NCBI GenBank assembly: GCA_003345555.1
Contig: PRDJ01000080.1
Location: 1-25,869 of the forward strand
DNA: 25,869 nt
Direction of reading: 5' to 3'
Source of the DNA: Candidatus Thorarchaeota archaeon
GTDB lineage: Archaea > Asgardarchaeota > Thorarchaeia > Thorarchaeales > Thorarchaeaceae
Shown here: positions 3,941 to 11,724 of the stretch, in pieces
Layout of the letters: each line of letters opens with the position of its first letter
Numbering within the stretch: position 1 is the first letter of the stretch
Translations under genes and position numbers: made by a program
Notes under the pieces: model-generated
The model's input: the letters and a program-made list of their open reading frames with translations, nothing else
Databases searched by the model: none
Told to the model about the DNA's origin: nothing

Positions 3941-5854
3941 ATGACAACCAATCGAGATTCCTCAGCAGAAGGTACAAGAGTAACCCTCAAGCGGGACGTA
4001 GGTTGGTACGGCTCTTTCGCCATGGGCTACGCTGACGTAGGCGCTGACATCTATCTTGCTCTTGGCTTGGTGGCAGCGTATGCCGCAGGATGGGCTCCCA
4101 TTGCCTTTCTGATTGCGTCCGTCACGTATGTGGCGACGGGTCTTGCATATGCCGAACTAGCCACTGCTTACCCATACGCCGGCGGCGCTCACGTCTACGC
4201 GATGAAAGCATTCAATGACTTCGCAGGTTTCGGGGCCGGCTGGCTCGTAATGCTTGACTATACTGTGGATATGGCTCTCTTCTCAATAGCAACAACAGGC
4301 TACCTGACCTTTTTCCTCCCTTGGCTGAATGTGCTGACCGTTACCATCGGAGTCTTGGGCTTTCAGGTCACTCTTAGCGCCATGGGCCTGACCTCTTTCA
4401 CTATTGTTGTGGCTCTCATATGCATCAATATTATCGGTATCAAGGAATCATCTGGCTTGAACATGGTGATGGTTAGCCTGAGCCTCGTTGTGCTGTCCCT
4501 TGTGGCCATTGTGGGGCTGCTGTTCGCTTTTCGTCTCGATCTATTTGTGCTTCAGTTGTCTGTGGTGGGTGCCCCTCAACAGTTCGGCCACATATCGTAT
4601 GTGTCAGGATTGGGTCTTAACACGCAGAATCTCCTTTACGCCATCACTCTTGCGATGAGTTCGTTCATAGGTATAGAGTCGATAGCTCAGGCCGCCGAGG
4701 AGACCAAGAGGCCAGACAAGACAATTCCTCGGGCTACTAAGATGTCTGTCGTCTCAGTCTTGGTTTTCGCAGTGGGGCTATCAGTCCTCAGTATGGGGAT
4801 ACTCCCTTGGGATGTGCTGGCCGCTCATCTGGAAAGCCCCATTAGCACCCTTGCAGGCTCTTTCGCTTTCATAGGACCATTCATTGTGCCGGTGGTAGCA
4901 GGTGCGGGCTTTGCGATATGTCTCGTCTCTGCAAACACCGGAGTAATAGGGGTGTCAAGGGTTGTATTCTCGATGGGACGTTTTGGTCTCCTGCCGCGCT
5001 GGTTCTCGAAAATCAACCCTAGGACGCGGACACCCGTCCGAACCATTCTCATCTTCGGCCTGATTGGAGCAATCATGGCGCTTGTTGGACAACTTGACTG
5101 GGTTGCAGACCTCTACAACTTCGGAGCACTGCTGTCCTATTCTATCGTGAATGCGTCTCTGATTGTACTACGTCAAACGGACAAGGACACTCATCGTTCA
5201 TGGGAGGTACCCTTGAGCTTGAAGGTCAGCAGGCGTGGCCGCCTCTACAGAATCCCATTGTCCGCCATCGTTGGTATCGCTGCATGCTTGTCCATCTGGT
5301 CTCTTGTCATAGTCTTTCATCCGATGGGACGGGTCCTTGGTCTGACGTGGTTGAGCGTTGGAGTGCTGGCCTACGTGATCTATCGTCACGCGCTTAACAG
5401 ACCCCTCCTTTCGAAGGAAGCAGGGCGCTCGATAAAGCCCATGGCCTACAAGTTCAATGCACTTGTCTTGATTCGTCCCGAAGAGAAAGAGGAGGTCGTC
5501 GATTCTATCAGGGGCAGCCTGACCACTCAGTTCCGCCTAACGTTGATGAGTGTTATCCGTACTGGTCGCTGGCACATTCCTCTATCCGTGGCCGAACAGT
5601 ACAGGGAGCTGACGTTGCTCGATTTAGAGGAAATGGCTCATGCTCTCTCAGGGTTCGGCTTCGAAGCTTCAGTCCGGGTTGAGGTTGGCCCCTTAGCACG
5701 AGTAATCACTGACGCAGTCCTGTCACCCGAGTACGACTTTGTGGTTCTACCACTGAGGAAGGGCTTTAAGAAAGTACACAAGAAAGACGAAGAAGACATT
5801 GTGACGTTGGTTTCTTCCGTTGCACCTGGGAAGATTATGGTGGTAAGAAAATAA
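3941..5854 (+). CDS. APC-family amino acid/cation permease with C-terminal UspA-like soluble domain
   Basis: 637 aa. The N-terminal ~480 aa are hydrophobic with APC motifs (GADIY, YAELATAYPYAGG, GIESIAQAAEE, SRVVFSMGR..LP..FSKINPRTRTP). The last ~140 aa have a Usp-like pattern (ALVLIRP..LTLMSVI..VEVGPLARVITDAV...DFVVLP). Confidence 0.88.
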   Translation: MTTNRDSSAEGTRVTLKRDVGWYGSFAMGYADVGADIYLALGLVAAYAAGWAPIAFLIASVTYVATGLAYAELATAYPYAGGAHVYAMKAFNDFAGFGAGWLVMLDYTVDMALFSIATTGYLTFFLPWLNVLTVTIGVLGFQVTLSAMGLTSFTIVVALICINIIGIKESSGLNMVMVSLSLVVLSLVAIVGLLFAFRLDLFVLQLSVVGAPQQFGHISYVSGLGLNTQNLLYAITLAMSSFIGIESIAQAAEETKRPDKTIPRATKMSVVSVLVFAVGLSVLSMGILPWDVLAAHLESPISTLAGSFAFIGPFIVPVVAGAGFAICLVSANTGVIGVSRVVFSMGRFGLLPRWFSKINPRTRTPVRTILIFGLIGAIMALVGQLDWVADLYNFGALLSYSIVNASLIVLRQTDKDTHRSWEVPLSLKVSRRGRLYRIPLSAIVGIAACLSIWSLVIVFHPMGRVLGLTWLSVGVLAYVIYRHALNRPLLSKEAGRSIKPMAYKFNALVLIRPEEKEEVVDSIRGSLTTQFRLTLMSVIRTGRWHIPLSVAEQYRELTLLDLEEMAHALSGFGFEASVRVEVGPLARVITDAVLSPEYDFVVLPLRKGFKKVHKKDEEDIVTLVSSVAPGKIMVVRK

Positions 5855-6120
5855 TGCCCGGCATTCGAGTTATCCTGAGCGTATACATTGAGTCAAATCT
5901 CGAGGAAGTCGCAGACGCGCTCACTGAGATTCCTGAGGTTGTGGACGTCTTTGAGGTAACCGGGGAAGCGGACATAATAGCTTTCCTAGAGGCCGATGAC
6001 GTAATGCAGTTCCGCAATATTCTGAAGAACAACATCCTGAAGATACCGGGAATAAAGAGCACAGTATCAAGCGTCGTGATGTTCGTTCACAAGAAAGACG
6101 GCCAAGTAGTTGAAGAATGA
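5854..6120 (+). CDS. Stand-alone Lrp/AsnC ligand-binding (RAM) domain protein with no HTH (demi-FFRP type)
   Basis: LTEIPEVVDVFEVTGEADIIAFLEADDVMQFRNILKNNILKIPGIKSTVS is a typical AsnC C-terminal domain. Its ATG overlaps the permease TAA (taATG at 5852-5856). Confidence 0.85.
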   Translation: MPGIRVILSVYIESNLEEVADALTEIPEVVDVFEVTGEADIIAFLEADDVMQFRNILKNNILKIPGIKSTVSSVVMFVHKKDGQVVEE

Positions 6121-6139
6121 AGGGGGTTGAACTCTACTG

Positions 6140-6562
6140 GTGGAAGAAGGTACCCGAGACTATGTCTTGATGCCATATTCCGGAGATATCGCCTACTCTG
6201 ACATGGTTGCTGCAATGCTCCCTCTCTTGAAATTCCAGACAAAAGCGCTGACTCTCTTTCATGTGATTGAAACTCCCATATCCGCTCCTCTTGACACGGA
6301 TGAGATGAAGGATCTCGTTGCCGCTGCAGAAGTCAAGATCAAGCCTCTTTCGGATTGGTTAAGCAAACAGGGATACCGCGTGCAAACCAAGGTCGCAGTA
6401 GCTAGGCATGTGAAGGATGCTATAATTGAAGAGGCAAATGACCCTCGCTACTCCTTGCTATTCATGTTGAAGCGCAGAAAAAGGCGGAAGCCACTCTCCA
6501 AAAGCGTCACAGAAGAAATCATTGGTCATGTGCAGCTTCCGGTGGTCACAATCCTCGTCTAG
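6140..6562 (+). CDS. Universal stress protein (UspA family)
   Basis: VLMPYSG..LTLFHVIE..VAVARHVKDAIIEEA...LLFMLKR..SVTEEIIGHVQLPVVTI follows the Usp fold pattern. Confidence 0.8.
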   Translation: MEEGTRDYVLMPYSGDIAYSDMVAAMLPLLKFQTKALTLFHVIETPISAPLDTDEMKDLVAAAEVKIKPLSDWLSKQGYRVQTKVAVARHVKDAIIEEANDPRYSLLFMLKRRKRRKPLSKSVTEEIIGHVQLPVVTILV

Positions 6563-6650: not shown

Positions 6651-7430
6651 CTACTCGCCAACAACTACTGCATCCACGAAAAGCTCGTACTTCTCGTCCT
6701 CGTCGAGGTTGTGCATGAGGACCTTTTCGACTTCGTCTTCCCCGCGTATTTCAAGGAGTCGTGACTGATACAGCACCTTAATTCCTGACTTCGCTAGCTT
6801 CTCCTGCAGAACCTTCGTCGTCTGGATCTCATTCTCAGGTGTAGATAGCACAACTCGTCCGGTGACCGCGGTGAGCTGAATTGCTGTTTCAATGGACTTA
6901 TCGCCCGTGTGGACAACCAGTACTCGCTTGTCTTTGAGCTCTTTGGGATCATTTACCATGATGTAAACTCCTTTACCTAGGAACTGGTCTCTGCCAATGG
7001 CGCATTCCGTTGGTTCAGCTGAATGCTTCTTTTCAGCCACTGGTTCTCCTGCCATCTTCGCACGATAGTTCTTGATTGCCTCATGCAGAGCATCAGCAGC
7101 TAGGTTGGAACAGTGCATCTTGATGGGCGGGAGTCCTTGAAGTTCGTCCGCCACATTCTGCCTCGTCACCTGCATTGCTTCGTCAAGAGTCATTCCCTTT
7201 ACGAGTTCGGTCGTCATGCTGCTTGTAGCGATTGCAGATCCGCACCCGAAAGTTCTGAACTTTGCTTCCACAATCCGGTCATCCTTGACTCTGATGAAGA
7301 CCTCCATCAGGTCGCCACATATGGGGTTGCCTACTATTCCGGAGGCTACGTCATCACCCTCCATGGTTCCGACATTCCTTGGATTGCGGAAATGGTCCAA
7401 TACTTTCTCGCTATATTGAGTTGACTTCAT
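6651..7430 (-). CDS. iscU: IscU/NifU-type Fe-S scaffold fused to a degenerate thioredoxin-reductase-like NAD(P)H-binding domain
   Basis: YSEKVLDHFRNPRNVG, NPICGD, FGCGSAIA and LPPIKMHCSNLA give all three scaffold Cys plus the Asp and His. About 115 extra C-terminal aa resemble TrxR. The ATG at 7430 is preferred over the track's GTG at 7451 because GGTGAT lies just upstream. Confidence 0.9.
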   Translation of the reverse strand: MKSTQYSEKVLDHFRNPRNVGTMEGDDVASGIVGNPICGDLMEVFIRVKDDRIVEAKFRTFGCGSAIATSSMTTELVKGMTLDEAMQVTRQNVADELQGLPPIKMHCSNLAADALHEAIKNYRAKMAGEPVAEKKHSAEPTECAIGRDQFLGKGVYIMVNDPKELKDKRVLVVHTGDKSIETAIQLTAVTGRVVLSTPENEIQTTKVLQEKLAKSGIKVLYQSRLLEIRGEDEVEKVLMHNLDEDEKYELFVDAVVVGE

Positions 7431-7437
7431 TTCAACA

Positions 7438-8607
7438 TCACCTTCCTGCACAAGTGTAAATGGGAGATAGTGTCCTCAAGTGGGCAACTACTCCCGGTAT
7501 TGCTTCGATTACTTTGTCTGCATCACTGTCAACATTGAATCGTCCAAAGGTTAGCTCAAGTGAACCGTGAGCCTCTTCGTGCACCAGACCGGTCGCTATC
7601 AGTGTGTGCGAGGGTTCCAGTGTCTTTGAACTGCATGCAGAGCCGGTAGCTACTGAGATGCCTTTGTCCTTCAATGAGAGCAGAATTGATTCTCCTTCGA
7701 TTCCGTCAAACCTGAAGTGTGCGTTACTGGCTAGACGTTCTGTCGGGTGGCCGTTCAGATGGCTGTCTGGCACATCCTGAAGCACACGCTTGATCACCTT
7801 GTCACGGTAATTCTTAAACCGACTGACTTCAGAGGGCATTTCCTTGGTCATGATTTCGGCCGCGGCCCGCATGCCTACGATTCCTGGGATATCTTCTGTT
7901 CCAGACCTAAGACCTCTCTCCTGCCCGCCGCCTATCATAATTGGGTTTACCCTGAACCCTTTCCTCATGTATAGGAGGCCAACGCCCTTTGGACCATAAA
8001 TGTCGTTGGAGGATAGGGACATCAAGTCTATGCTATCCCGGTTAACGTCAAGGTCCACTAGGCCCTCGGCGGCCACTGCGTCTGTGTGAAATGCGATGCC
8101 TCTCTCCTTTGCGATTTTTCCTATCTCTGCAATGGGCTGAACAGTGCCTATTTCATTGCTAGCGTACCCAACCGAAATGAGAATCGTGTTGTCTTTCAGT
8201 TTACGTTCGAGCTTGTCAACATGGACCAACCCATACTGATCCACAGGCACTTTCGTAATCTCGAAGCCTTGAGAAGCTAGGTACTTGGCTATGTTGTGAA
8301 TTGAGATATGCTCTATCTCCGAAATAACAATGTGATTCCCCTTCTTCTTGTTCTTCAGAGCATAACCCATGAGAGCGAGGTTAATGGACTCGGTCGCCCC
8401 AGAGGTGAACACAATATCGTCCGCGTCCGCATGGATGAACTTGGCAATCCTCTTTCTGCTATCCTCAAGGGCATCGGTTGCAGTGTCGCCAACCTTGTGG
8501 AGGGATGACGGATTTCCAAACCGGTCATGGAAATATGGCATCATCTCTTCTATCACCCTTGGGTCAACAGGCTTCGACGACTGGTAATCAAGGTAAACTT
8601 CGTCCAT
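7438..8607 (-). CDS. iscS: IscS/NifS-family cysteine desulfurase homologue with the PLP Lys replaced by Asp
   Basis: VYLDYQSS, FGNPSSLH, FTSGATES, EIEH, NEIGTVQP, GGGQERGLRSGT and ATGSACSS (catalytic Cys) are present. SSNDIYGPKG replaces SxHKxYGPKG. ATG at 8607 is preferred over 8637, which would overlap dsrE. Confidence 0.92.
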   Translation of the reverse strand: MDEVYLDYQSSKPVDPRVIEEMMPYFHDRFGNPSSLHKVGDTATDALEDSRKRIAKFIHADADDIVFTSGATESINLALMGYALKNKKKGNHIVISEIEHISIHNIAKYLASQGFEITKVPVDQYGLVHVDKLERKLKDNTILISVGYASNEIGTVQPIAEIGKIAKERGIAFHTDAVAAEGLVDLDVNRDSIDLMSLSSNDIYGPKGVGLLYMRKGFRVNPIMIGGGQERGLRSGTEDIPGIVGMRAAAEIMTKEMPSEVSRFKNYRDKVIKRVLQDVPDSHLNGHPTERLASNAHFRFDGIEGESILLSLKDKGISVATGSACSSKTLEPSHTLIATGLVHEEAHGSLELTFGRFNVDSDADKVIEAIPGVVAHLRTLSPIYTCAGR

Positions 8608-8627: not shown

Positions 8628-9002
8628 CTAGAACCACATGGTTGCGTCCGCGTCTAATGCGAGGTCATTCAATGTAGCGGCACCCACTATCTTGACCCCA
8701 GGTATTAACTCAACCTTGTCCCATCCAAGCATTTGTTTCGATGCTTCACAGACGTAAATTGGTATGCCGGCTTTCAGAGTCTGGTTAATCATGTCAAGAA
8801 CGCTAGGAAAGCTACCCAGTTTGATCTTCTCGGCTGCACCAGGCTTCAAAATCCTGAGACCCGTTCCAAGATAGTACACCTTCGCATCAATATTCATTGC
8901 CTTCGCGCTCTGAGCCAGCACTAGTGGAGAGTATTGTCTCTCTGGGTTGTCGCTCGTCTGGACGTACAGAATGCTCTTCTTGCCTGTAATCTTCTTACTC
9001 AT
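8628..9002 (-). CDS. DsrE/DsrF-like sulfur-relay protein
   Basis: 124 aa with PLVLAQSAKAMNIDAKVYYLGTG..GIPIYVCEAS..ELIPGVKIVGAATL..ADATMWF. A single Cys sits at the position of the active DsrE Cys. Confidence 0.85.
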   Translation of the reverse strand: MSKKITGKKSILYVQTSDNPERQYSPLVLAQSAKAMNIDAKVYYLGTGLRILKPGAAEKIKLGSFPSVLDMINQTLKAGIPIYVCEASKQMLGWDKVELIPGVKIVGAATLNDLALDADATMWF

Positions 9003-9013
9003 TTTGAATCCAC

Positions 9014-9256
9014 CTACTTTTTCTTTCTAATCAGAAATCTTTGAACACCATCTTCCTGCTTCTCGTAGAGAATGAGTTCATTCCCTGTTCTCTTCGCAAA
9101 TACCTTCAAGTCCTCTTCAGCCGCAGGATCATCGGCTAGAACCTCTAGTATCTCTCCAACTTTCAGCTTGTCTATAGCTTCTCTTGTCTGGAATAGCGGC
9201 TGCGGACAAAACAGCCCAACACAATCCAGTGTTTCTGCGGGCTCGTTCTTCTTCAT
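9014..9256 (-). CDS. tusA: TusA/SirA-family sulfur carrier
   Basis: LDCVGLFCPQP (CPxP motif), GEILEVLADDPAAEEDL and a FLIRK C-terminus. An AGGAG SD lies upstream. Confidence 0.92.
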   Translation of the reverse strand: MKKNEPAETLDCVGLFCPQPLFQTREAIDKLKVGEILEVLADDPAAEEDLKVFAKRTGNELILYEKQEDGVQRFLIRKKK

Positions 9257-9269
9257 ATCGTGTTCTCCT

Positions 9270-9323
9270 AACTATCGTTAATCAACGCTAGCTCCGCCCG
9301 TTAACTTATAAAACTATCGTTAA
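9270..9323. repeat. 12-bp exact direct repeat AACTATCGTTAA (9270-9281 and 9312-9323) flanking a TTATAA box at 9306-9311
   Basis: Read directly. The copies start 42 bp apart, in the divergent tusA/adh intergenic region. Confidence 0.75.
9306..9311 (-). promoter_or_regulatory. Putative TATA box for the tusA operon (palindromic TTATAA)
   Basis: Lies about 50 bp upstream of the tusA ATG in an AT-rich patch. Confidence 0.45.
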
Positions 9324-9450: not shown

Positions 9451-10560
9451 ATGGCACGTCACAGCAAAGCAGCGGTGGTTCCCAAACCCAACGATCCGCT
9501 CGTTATCAAGGATATTGAGATTCCCGAGCTTGTACCCGGTTCCATCTTATTGAAAGTCGCAAACGCTGGTGTCTGCGGCACCGATGTCCATCTTTGGCAT
9601 GGAAAGCTTACCGGGGTACCTTATCCACTCATACTTGGTCATGAGGTCGTAGGAACCGTTGAGGATCTAGGCTCTGGACAGACAAAGGACCTTGACGCTG
9701 GTCAGATAGAGATTGGTGACAGGGTCACGTTTCACGATGTCACAAAGACCTGCTACTCTTGCTGGAACTGTCTCGTCGCCAAAGCACCTACCAAATGCAC
9801 CAATCGAGAAGTCTACGGAATAACGCGTGACTCAAGCAAGTTTCCGTTCTTGATTGGAGGTTACAGCGAATACATGTACCTCACACCCGGCACGCACATG
9901 ATGAGCATTCCTGAGAATGTGAGTTTCAATGGAGCAATATCAGCAGGTTGCGCCCTGCCGACTGCAGTGCACGCCGCCACTAGGAGTCCACTTACATGGG
10001 GCGCCAACGTTGCAGTACAAGGAGCTGGACCAGTGGGCCTGATGATTGCGATGATCGCAAAGGTGAACGGGGCTAGAACAGTCACGTCCATTGACCAAGC
10101 TCCGAATCGTCTGGAGCTCGCTGAGGAGTTCGGGGCGACACATACCCTGAACATACGGGAGGGCACCGTTGAGGACCGTAAGAAATTCCTACGTGACATA
10201 TCGAATGGTCATGGACCTGACATAGTCTATGAGGCGACCGGCGCGGCCAGAGCCATACCGGAGGGAATAGAGCTTGTGCGTGAGGGCGGCACTTACACGA
10301 TTTGCGGCCAGTATACTGACAGCGGGACTGTAGAGGTCAGACCGCACCTGATGAATCGCAAGCACTTGGACATCAGAACTGTCTGGGGTACGGAGACAGT
10401 TCATGTATACAGGGCCATCAAGACCATTGCCGAAAACTACGATCGGTTTCCATTTGAGAAGCTTGTCACTCATCGTTTCCCGCTTCGTGATGCGCAGAAG
10501 GCGCTGGAAGCTCAGGAGAAACTGATTTCGATCAAGGCAGTGATTGCACCTAATGGTTAG
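9451..10560 (+). CDS. Zinc-dependent medium-chain alcohol dehydrogenase (MDR, TM0436-like)
   Basis: Catalytic Zn ligands (GVCGTDVH, GHE), structural Zn CYSCWNC..C and Rossmann motif QGAGPVG. Confidence 0.92.
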   Translation: MARHSKAAVVPKPNDPLVIKDIEIPELVPGSILLKVANAGVCGTDVHLWHGKLTGVPYPLILGHEVVGTVEDLGSGQTKDLDAGQIEIGDRVTFHDVTKTCYSCWNCLVAKAPTKCTNREVYGITRDSSKFPFLIGGYSEYMYLTPGTHMMSIPENVSFNGAISAGCALPTAVHAATRSPLTWGANVAVQGAGPVGLMIAMIAKVNGARTVTSIDQAPNRLELAEEFGATHTLNIREGTVEDRKKFLRDISNGHGPDIVYEATGAARAIPEGIELVREGGTYTICGQYTDSGTVEVRPHLMNRKHLDIRTVWGTETVHVYRAIKTIAENYDRFPFEKLVTHRFPLRDAQKALEAQEKLISIKAVIAPNG

Positions 10561-10650: not shown

Positions 10651-11724
10651 GTGCCCAATAGAGACTGTCGAGTCGGTTTTATGTGGAATACGGCCTTCGA
10701 CAGTTTCGATTATGGCGACCGACATCCGTTGAGACCCGGCCGTTTTAGAATGATTCGGGACTATCTCGATTCAGCTGGATTACTTGCGTCTGCGAACGTC
10801 GTTGAGATAGAAGCAGAACCTCTCTCTATGGCAGTTCTTGAAAGGGTCCATTCCTCAGAGTACGTCGAGTCTGTGAGAAGAATATCTCAAACGGGCGAAG
10901 GAGAGATCGACATAGATACGCCGGGATTCAGAGGAATATACGAGAATGCTCTCATGCTGTCGGGGGCTACCGTAACCGGAGTACGCGCAGTCCTTTCGGG
11001 ACATGTAGAGCATTTTCTTTCTCCTACAGGAGGCTTCCATCATGCCAAGTTCGAAAGAGGAGGCGGCTTCTGCGTATTCAACGATATCGCGGCTGCGGTT
11101 CATGAGCTAAAACAGCACGGTCTTAATCGAATACTTGTCGCGGATTTCGATGTCCATCATGGAAATGGCGATCAAGCGTACTTCTACGATGACCCGGAAG
11201 TGATGGTCATCTCTTTCCATGAGGATCCCGAGTGGATGTATCCGCACGAGGGCTACGTGAACGAGATTGGCTCTGGTCGTGGCGTTGGCTACAACATCAA
11301 CATGCCCTTTCCAATGGATGCAGGCGATAGCGTCTACAGGTATGCGTTTGACGAGCTTGTTCCAAAGCTGATTGATTTATTTCGTCCTCAATTCATACTG
11401 TTTCTGCCAGGTTTCGATGCACACTATTTGGATCGGCTGGCTCACCTCAAACTGACAACAACAATGACTCGATACATCACGGGAAGGATACACAATGCAG
11501 CGCACAAATGGAGTGAAGGGCGGCTCGGAGTTGTGACGGGCGGAGGATACCATCCTGATTCTCTGTGCTGGGGCGTGGCCTCGGTAATGTCAGTACTGTC
11601 AGGTCGGGAGTATTCTCCCCCTAGGCAAAACCCACCTTTCAAGGATGATGAGGAGACATGGAGGACTGTGCATGAGACCGTGGATCAAGTCAAGGATTCG
11701 GTCTTCCCAGTCCTAGGAATCTGA
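10651..11724 (+). CDS. Zn-dependent histone deacetylase family protein (AcuC/HDAC-like amidohydrolase)
   Basis: HPLRPGR, GGFHHA, GFCVFND, DFDVHHGNG, SFH, NINMP, GFDAH..D.LA and GGGY are all present. Confidence 0.93.
   Translation: MPNRDCRVGFMWNTAFDSFDYGDRHPLRPGRFRMIRDYLDSAGLLASANVVEIEAEPLSMAVLERVHSSEYVESVRRISQTGEGEIDIDTPGFRGIYENALMLSGATVTGVRAVLSGHVEHFLSPTGGFHHAKFERGGGFCVFNDIAAAVHELKQHGLNRILVADFDVHHGNGDQAYFYDDPEVMVISFHEDPEWMYPHEGYVNEIGSGRGVGYNINMPFPMDAGDSVYRYAFDELVPKLIDLFRPQFILFLPGFDAHYLDRLAHLKLTTTMTRYITGRIHNAAHKWSEGRLGVVTGGGYHPDSLCWGVASVMSVLSGREYSPPRQNPPFKDDEETWRTVHETVDQVKDSVFPVLGI

Follow-up and report, generated by a model that had tools for sequence, protein, structure and literature searches.

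A lysine-less IscS homologue encoded with TusA, DsrE and IscU in a Thorarchaeota genome without detectable SufBC

Archaeal IscS homologues that lack the Schiff-base lysine have been described previously. In Archaeoglobus fulgidus, IscS (AfIscS) has Asp199 in place of this lysine and shows no desulfurase activity, and the D199K variant is also reported to be inactive (PMC7585200; PMC8918507). The protein holds PMP non-covalently and has been crystallized with PMP or PLP (PMC8918507), and its cysteine coordinates the [2Fe-2S] cluster on IscU (IscU D35A) (PMC13066941). The preliminary description of the locus studied here had cited the lysine replacement, the inactivity and the cysteine ligand, and these sources agree with it on all three. 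How AfIscS-IscU is supplied with sulfur without desulfurase activity was stated to be an open question by the authors, who favoured free sulfide (PMC8918507). Methanosarcina acetivorans IscS1 is also reported to lack the catalytic lysine and was proposed to have an AfIscS-like role (PMC7585200). A further related system is MIS (MisS-MisU), a minimal system for iron-sulfur assembly that Garcia et al. defined in archaea and anaerobes and in which MisS is described as a cysteine desulfurase (PMC13066941).

We analysed a window of 25,869 nucleotides, which is the whole of contig PRDJ01000080.1 from a Candidatus Thorarchaeota archaeon (GCA_003345555.1). The assembly has a size of 2.28 Mb and is 93.5% complete. 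The window contains four tightly packed minus-strand genes in the order tusA-dsrE-iscS(ND)-iscU, where ND denotes the Asn-Asp found at the position of the canonical His-Lys (HK). The features are as follows:

9270..9323, minus strand: promoter region of the operon, with a TATA box and flanking repeats
9014..9256, minus strand: tusA, 80 aa (PF01206, 86 bits)
8628..9002, minus strand: DsrE-family sulfur-carrier gene, 124 aa (PF02635, 61 bits)
7438..8607, minus strand: iscS(ND), a 389-aa type I cysteine-desulfurase homologue without the Schiff-base lysine
8002..8007, minus strand: codons AAC GAC for Asn201-Asp202, at the position of His205-Lys206 in E. coli IscS
7633..7635, minus strand: Cys325 codon; the residue lies in the mobile loop TGSACSSK and aligns with Cys328 of E. 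coli IscS
6651..7430, minus strand: iscU fusion, 259 aa, with an N-terminal IscU and a C-terminal thioredoxin-reductase NADPH domain

The iscS(ND) gene starts at the ATG at 8607, which is where the orthologues begin, and stops at 7438-7440; an alternative start at GTG 8637 would run into the upstream gene. The product belongs to the class V aminotransferase fold family (PF00266, Pfam Aminotran_5; 255 bits, residues 4-364) and matches IscS, NFS1 and NifS structures over its full length. The best solved relative is A. fulgidus IscS2, 'probable cysteine desulfurase 2' (4EB5/4EB7/4HVK; E 2.3e-134, 451 bits), and the D199K variant of that protein (4R5F) is also among the best solved matches. Shared with A. 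fulgidus IscS2-IscU (AF0564) are the SSNDIYGPKG motif, the loss of the DAxQ Gln and of R354, the TGSACSSK loop, a TSAKP-type N-terminus and an IscU gene next door. The likeness to A. fulgidus IscS that had been pointed out earlier is upheld. By these comparisons, IscS(ND) is an orthologue of the A. fulgidus-type lysine-less IscS, and a Lys-to-Asp IscS is in itself already known. The locus differs from that of A. fulgidus in its host, an Asgard archaeon (Thorarchaeota) rather than a sulfate reducer; in its IscU, to which a TrxR NADPH domain without the usual motifs is added; in the presence of dsrE between tusA and iscS; and in its genome, where SufBC was not detected and another Lys-less pair has degenerated in a different way.

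For comparison of the active sites, the E. coli IscS sequence was taken from NC_000913, its numbering was checked, and it was aligned by MAFFT with 111 related sequences. Residues D202, N201, A179 and C325 of IscS(ND) are aligned with K206, H205, Q183 and C328 of E. coli IscS, respectively. The preliminary description had claimed an Asn-Asp in place of His-Lys, a changed Gln in DAxQ and an intact TGSACS cysteine, and all three readings are correct. The codons can be read directly on the minus strand (AAC at 8007-8005 and GAC at 8004-8002, within LSSNDIYGPKG; SSNDIYGPKG covers residues 199-208 and nucleotides 7984-8013). A179, which replaces the Gln of DAxQ, is the last residue of HTDAVA (residues 174-179, nucleotides 8071-8088), and TGSACSS begins at residue 321. 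A clade-specific Lys is found three residues after Cys325.

Relative to the E. coli enzyme, four positions are changed (Q183 to A, H205 to N, K206 to D, and R354 to E), and the equivalents of N35, T76, H104, N155, D180, S203, T243 and C328 are retained. These retained residues include the contacts to the cofactor ring and phosphate (H104, D180, T76, S203 and T243). All 32 archaeal Lys-less sequences of the ND clade have the four-residue signature (Q183A, H205N, K206 to D/S, and R354 to E/Q/L), Q-H-K-R occupies the same positions in 83/83 HK-type sequences compared, and the loop cysteine equivalent to C328 is invariant in the ND clade. The joint change of the four positions indicates that the catalytic site was remodelled in a coordinated way. 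In the Schiff-base column of the alignment, we found no substitute lysine for K206 in IscS(ND). Two lysines, at E. coli positions 13 and 331, were gained elsewhere in the ND clade; they were considered as stand-ins for K206 and rejected, since the inactive A. fulgidus protein has both.

R354 of E. coli IscS is the arginine that binds the substrate carboxylate. Judged from its residues, IscS(ND) is unable to form the internal aldimine and has lost the carboxylate-binding arginine as well; because the equivalents of both Lys206 and R354 are gone, it is very probably not a cysteine desulfurase. The term pseudo-desulfurase, applied to it in the preliminary description, should not be equated with a cofactor-free protein, as AfIscS still holds PMP; given the conserved contacts, IscS(ND) may likewise have PMP or PLP bound in a structural role.

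The expectation that automated annotation would call this protein an active enzyme was borne out. IscS(ND) scores below the NCBIfam equivalog cut-offs (TIGR03402, 471 vs 530.75; TIGR02006, 396 vs 643), and it reaches only PRK02948, a subfamily model ('IscS subfamily'; 304 vs a cut-off of 304). Nevertheless, the public names of its nearest orthologues are 'cysteine desulfurase', 'cysteine desulfurase NifS' and 'cysteine desulfurase family protein'. The missed cut-offs together with these names justify the warning about annotation.

Among the nearest protein-cluster representatives in a collection of 5.8 billion sequences, mostly labelled Candidatus Thorarchaeota, 120/120 have both the ND and the Cys loop at identities of 71-94%. 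Orthologues with both features were found in 22 of the 24 genomes of the same family. The iscS reading frame is unbroken in all relatives, and the dN/dS against the closest congener is 0.03, which indicates strong purifying selection. Given this conservation and selection, the Asn-Asp cannot be attributed to chance or to sequencing error.

The preliminary description had spoken of an ND-type clade, and our phylogenies recover one. In the FastTree analysis of 134 sequences, the archaeal Lys-less (ND) sequences form a single clade (SH-like 0.999) that has the archaeal HK-type IscS as its sister (0.92). The IQ-TREE analysis of 52 sequences under a mixture model gave an SH-aLRT of 99 for the ND clade and 95 for the sister relation. 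The clade includes the window's protein and an Archaeoglobus sequence in both. Two bacterial Lys-less IscS, from Chloroflexota (L060; signature A-N-Q-L) and Desulfomonilaceae (L064; signature A-N-P-L), are placed apart from the archaeal clade by both trees. However, a single clade of all Lys-less sequences was not rejected by the AU test (p 0.53), so for the bacterial sequences we claim neither convergence nor a single origin.

The operon contains tusA, dsrE, iscS and iscU; no HscAB, IscA or Fdx gene was found in it. Cys17 of TusA (GLFCPQP) is aligned with Cys19 of E. coli TusA (1DCJ and 3LVJ_C; E 5e-12), which is the persulfide-carrying cysteine of that protein. Cys85 of DsrE (YVC(85)EAS) is aligned with the conserved YVC cysteine of 3MC3 (E 3e-12). 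For iscU, the ATG at 7430 (MKSTQYS), which is preceded by GGTGA, is the likely start. The cluster ligands C38, D40, C63, H106 and C107 are present and invariant in 20 orthologues. The C-terminal domain (window positions 6651-6995) corresponds to residues 119-231 of thioredoxin reductase (TIGR01292, 1e-16), and the CxxC, GGG and HRR motifs are missing from it in 21/21 orthologues. In the confident AlphaFold model of the fusion (pLDDT 81), the N-terminal half superimposes on the IscU structure 3LVL_A (TM 0.89) and the C-terminal half on TrxR-like NADPH domains (2ZBW and 3F8P; rmsd 1.4-1.5 Å).

Two other systems share parts of this arrangement. With MIS, the locus has in common a two-gene core of IscS-like and IscU-like proteins in an operon that has neither chaperone nor A-type carrier genes; the differences are the missing catalytic Lys of IscS(ND) and the addition of TusA and DsrE. 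The same three protein families make up the E. coli IscS-TusA and IscS-IscU complexes (3LVJ and 3LVL), and the equivalents of TusA Cys19 and IscS Cys328 are present here. In E. coli, however, active IscS passes sulfur to TusA. Since IscS(ND), judging from its residues, cannot make a persulfide itself, any sulfur flow would have to run towards IscS or around it.

The gene order tusA-(dsrE)-iscS(ND)-iscU is shared by 22 of the 24 genomes of the family and recurs in several other Asgard families as well as one Archaeoglobus MAG, in which tusA lies directly 5' of iscS(ND). The operon IscU of the other Asgard families has no TrxR-like fusion. Among 77 HK-type iscS loci examined with 4-kb flanks, tusA is present only at L060 (Chloroflexota MAG JACAEN010000026.1), where a Lys-less iscS (A-N-Q-L) lies beside iscU-tusA-dsrE. 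At this locus, a canonical HK-type iscS-iscU adjoins the Lys-less iscS, a second iscU, tusA and dsrE, such that both designs occur in one bacterial locus. In the SufB-less Asgard genome G036, a SufS-like gene is found in one operon with tusA-dsrE-iscS(ND); its product is an orthologue (46% identical) of the SufS-like protein of the present genome described below. A full-text literature search for tusA or dsrE linked to iscS or iscU in archaea found nothing relevant.

Some additional features of G036 were observed. Where IscU would be expected, between iscS(ND) and the SufS-like gene, the operon instead has an ORF of 120 aa without a Pfam family (L155:6213-6575). It was considered as a candidate IscU and rejected, as it is not IscU-like by comparison; a weak relative is found on contig C65 of the present genome (E 3e-6). 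The sole NifU_N match of this complete-looking genome is split, with model positions 2-34 and 32-126 located ~1.1 kb apart in one 518-aa frame (C1:2722196-2723713), a pattern that resembles the insertion of an intein close to the IscU cysteine that is the first cluster ligand.

The preliminary description had called for a search of the genome for a canonical HK-type IscS, SufS or SufBC, and of these only a Lys-bearing SufS-like gene was found. No HK-type IscS was found in this genome, and a profile search of this genome and three congeners (draft MAGs, 83-96% complete) detected neither the SUFBD core nor SufC; the best SufC match in this genome scored 83 bits against a cut-off of 212.8. The absence of SufB extends to five further genera of the family and is uniform within each of them; other genera have it. 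Two NifU_N genes are present in this genome, namely the iscU of the operon and a second on contig C52. The latter is part of a second IscS-IscU pair (C52:22401-24155) with a 'type 2' IscS, in which the Schiff-base lysine was lost by another route (K206V, with H104V, S203D, T243V and N35T; Q183, H205, R354 and C328 are kept). Type 2 IscS is found family-wide, forms its own deep and strongly supported clade, and has V, H, R or L in place of K206. Both IscS-IscU pairs of this genome are thus without the lysine by alignment, through different substitutions. A different situation is found in M. acetivorans, which has an active IscS2 and two SufBC systems.

A SufS-like protein encoded on contig C26 (TIGR01979, 431 bits), which has the HK and a GWHCA cysteine, is the only clear candidate for a Lys-bearing desulfurase in the present genome. 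It occurs as one copy in each of the 24 family genomes, and in Thorarchaeota the gene is unlinked to the iscS(ND) operon. In each of the SufB-less relatives G006, G008, G023 and G035, a single NifU_N gene was found, and it adjoins the gene for the ND-type IscS. From this inventory, de novo Fe-S scaffolding in this genus appears to depend solely on the ND system and the second Lys-less IscS-IscU pair.

Several other genes of related families were observed. Another SufS-like class V protein of this genome (C30:30630-31835; TIGR01979, 248 bits) has SGNVGLMGPPG at the His-Lys motif and is also Lys-less; its cysteine is kept in RSGLLCAHP, and its gene adjoins a glmS-like gene. Further sulfur-carrier genes include a DsrE-like gene arranged divergently with a gene whose 186-aa product has a TusA domain at its C-terminus (C67:11077-12202), as well as two adjacent DsrE-family genes (C76:7243-7968). 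In the family members G009 (C8), G014 (C7), G011, G015 and G024, an HK-type IscS is found within a 749-782-aa frame that has ~350 extra residues. This fusion is not present in the genome studied here.

We consider it fairly probable that IscS(ND) acts as a non-catalytic partner of IscU and that its Cys325 serves as a relay fed by TusA and DsrE, in line with the scaffold partner or sulfur relay put forward in the preliminary description. IscS(ND) would dock the downstream-encoded IscU in a likely (IscS-IscU)2 complex, with Cys325 as the likely fourth ligand of the nascent [2Fe-2S] cluster. Cys325 would probably also accept persulfide sulfur and pass it on, as the final stop on a route that likely runs from TusA/DsrE through IscS to IscU. 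In this route, TusA (Cys17) and DsrE (Cys85), encoded in the same operon, would give sulfane sulfur to Cys325; gene order is what points to them as probable donors. They could themselves be loaded by the single Lys-bearing SufS-like enzyme or from environmental sulfide or polysulfide. A broader statement, that all de novo Fe-S assembly in this genus and in several other SufBC-less Asgard lineages takes place on IscU and a dead IscS with sulfur arriving through a TusA/DsrE persulfide relay rather than from the system's own desulfuration, can be made only tentatively and may well be too wide.

The main alternative is direct use of sulfide. IscS(ND) may be a scaffold partner only, giving a Cys ligand and a dimeric platform while S2- enters the cluster directly and TusA and DsrE serve a co-regulated pathway (e.g., tRNA thiolation or molybdopterin). 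Free sulfide, the source offered for AfIscS-IscU (PMC8918507), would make a relay unnecessary, and this counts against our proposal; inorganic sulfide can also serve minimal SUF systems (bioRxiv 10.1101/2024.03.20.586028; PMC13066941). The additional TusA and DsrE copies elsewhere in the genome (on C67 and C76) fit such a division of labour. Gene order argues against direct entry of sulfide, as the four genes are tightly packed in a single operon and tusA is linked to Lys-less IscS across families, yet is absent from the 77 HK-type loci unless a Lys-less copy is also there. We regard this alternative as rather unlikely, although it deserves to be kept in mind.

Residual catalysis by IscS(ND) seems far less plausible. 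With its ring and phosphate contacts conserved and two lysines gained in its clade, IscS(ND) might bind its cofactor non-covalently and use another base (e.g., Lys 13 or 331) in place of K206, as a desulfurase or another PLP/PMP enzyme. The crystals of AfIscS with PMP or PLP are compatible with this idea (PMC8918507), and by analogy the PMP of AfIscS leaves some room for unrecognised cofactor-dependent chemistry, which is a point against the non-catalytic relay that we favour. However, AfIscS, which shares these residues and both gained lysines, was reported to be inactive, as was D199K (PMC7585200; PMC8918507), and R354, H205 and Q183 were lost together in IscS(ND). Decay to a pseudogene or a functionless redundant relic, for which the lost catalytic lysine could be taken as a sign, is hardly credible in view of the dN/dS of 0.03, the frame kept intact in all relatives, and the ND and Cys loop kept in all 120 nearest clusters. 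Moreover, the neighbouring IscU is the only scaffold gene found in several SufB-less relatives.

These results indicate that the dead-enzyme design of IscS is not an oddity of Archaeoglobus, being conserved and under strong selection in Asgard archaea. Several genomes appear to have no Fe-S scaffold system besides IscS(ND)-IscU, which always has TusA alongside and usually DsrE. The interest of the locus lies in its host and setting, namely an Asgard genus whose Fe-S scaffolds all appear to be IscS-IscU pairs with a dead desulfurase, packaged with sulfur carriers. Annotations as 'cysteine desulfurase' in Asgard metabolic reconstructions are unreliable. Also, the open question of the sulfur source of AfIscS-IscU (PMC8918507) becomes a defined experiment with four small proteins. 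If the broader statement made above is true, the closest archaeal relatives of eukaryotes would have a housekeeping ISC-type pathway that is independent of a desulfurase.

Upstream of the operon, a TATA box (TTTATAAG, 9305-9312) lies ahead of tusA and has an exact copy of TTAACGATAGTT on either side (9270-9281 and 9312-9323; two found vs 0.06 expected by chance). The proximal of the two copies belongs to a TTAAC-N4-GTTA dyad; relatives conserve this dyad 5' of tusA, which makes it a candidate operator. In most promoters of the family (Thorarchaeota), the TTAAC-N4-GTTA(A) dyad follows the TATA box and precedes the start of tusA, and related TAAC-N3/4-GTTA dyads are found in other Asgard families. 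A search of this genome for a TRASH-type (TRASH-domain) regulator found none.

The surroundings of the operon include, on the opposite strand 3' of it (window positions 5854-6562), genes for an 88-aa stand-alone AsnC/Lrp ligand-binding domain protein without an HTH and for a universal stress protein. Upstream, divergent genes encode a zinc alcohol-dehydrogenase-like protein (9451-10560) and a histone-deacetylase-family protein (10651-11724). The only other perfect copy of the dyad in this genome is on contig C24 (25792-25805), at the same promoter position ahead of a 192-aa ORF (C24:25813-26391) that has no Pfam family and lies directly 5' of a TFB gene.
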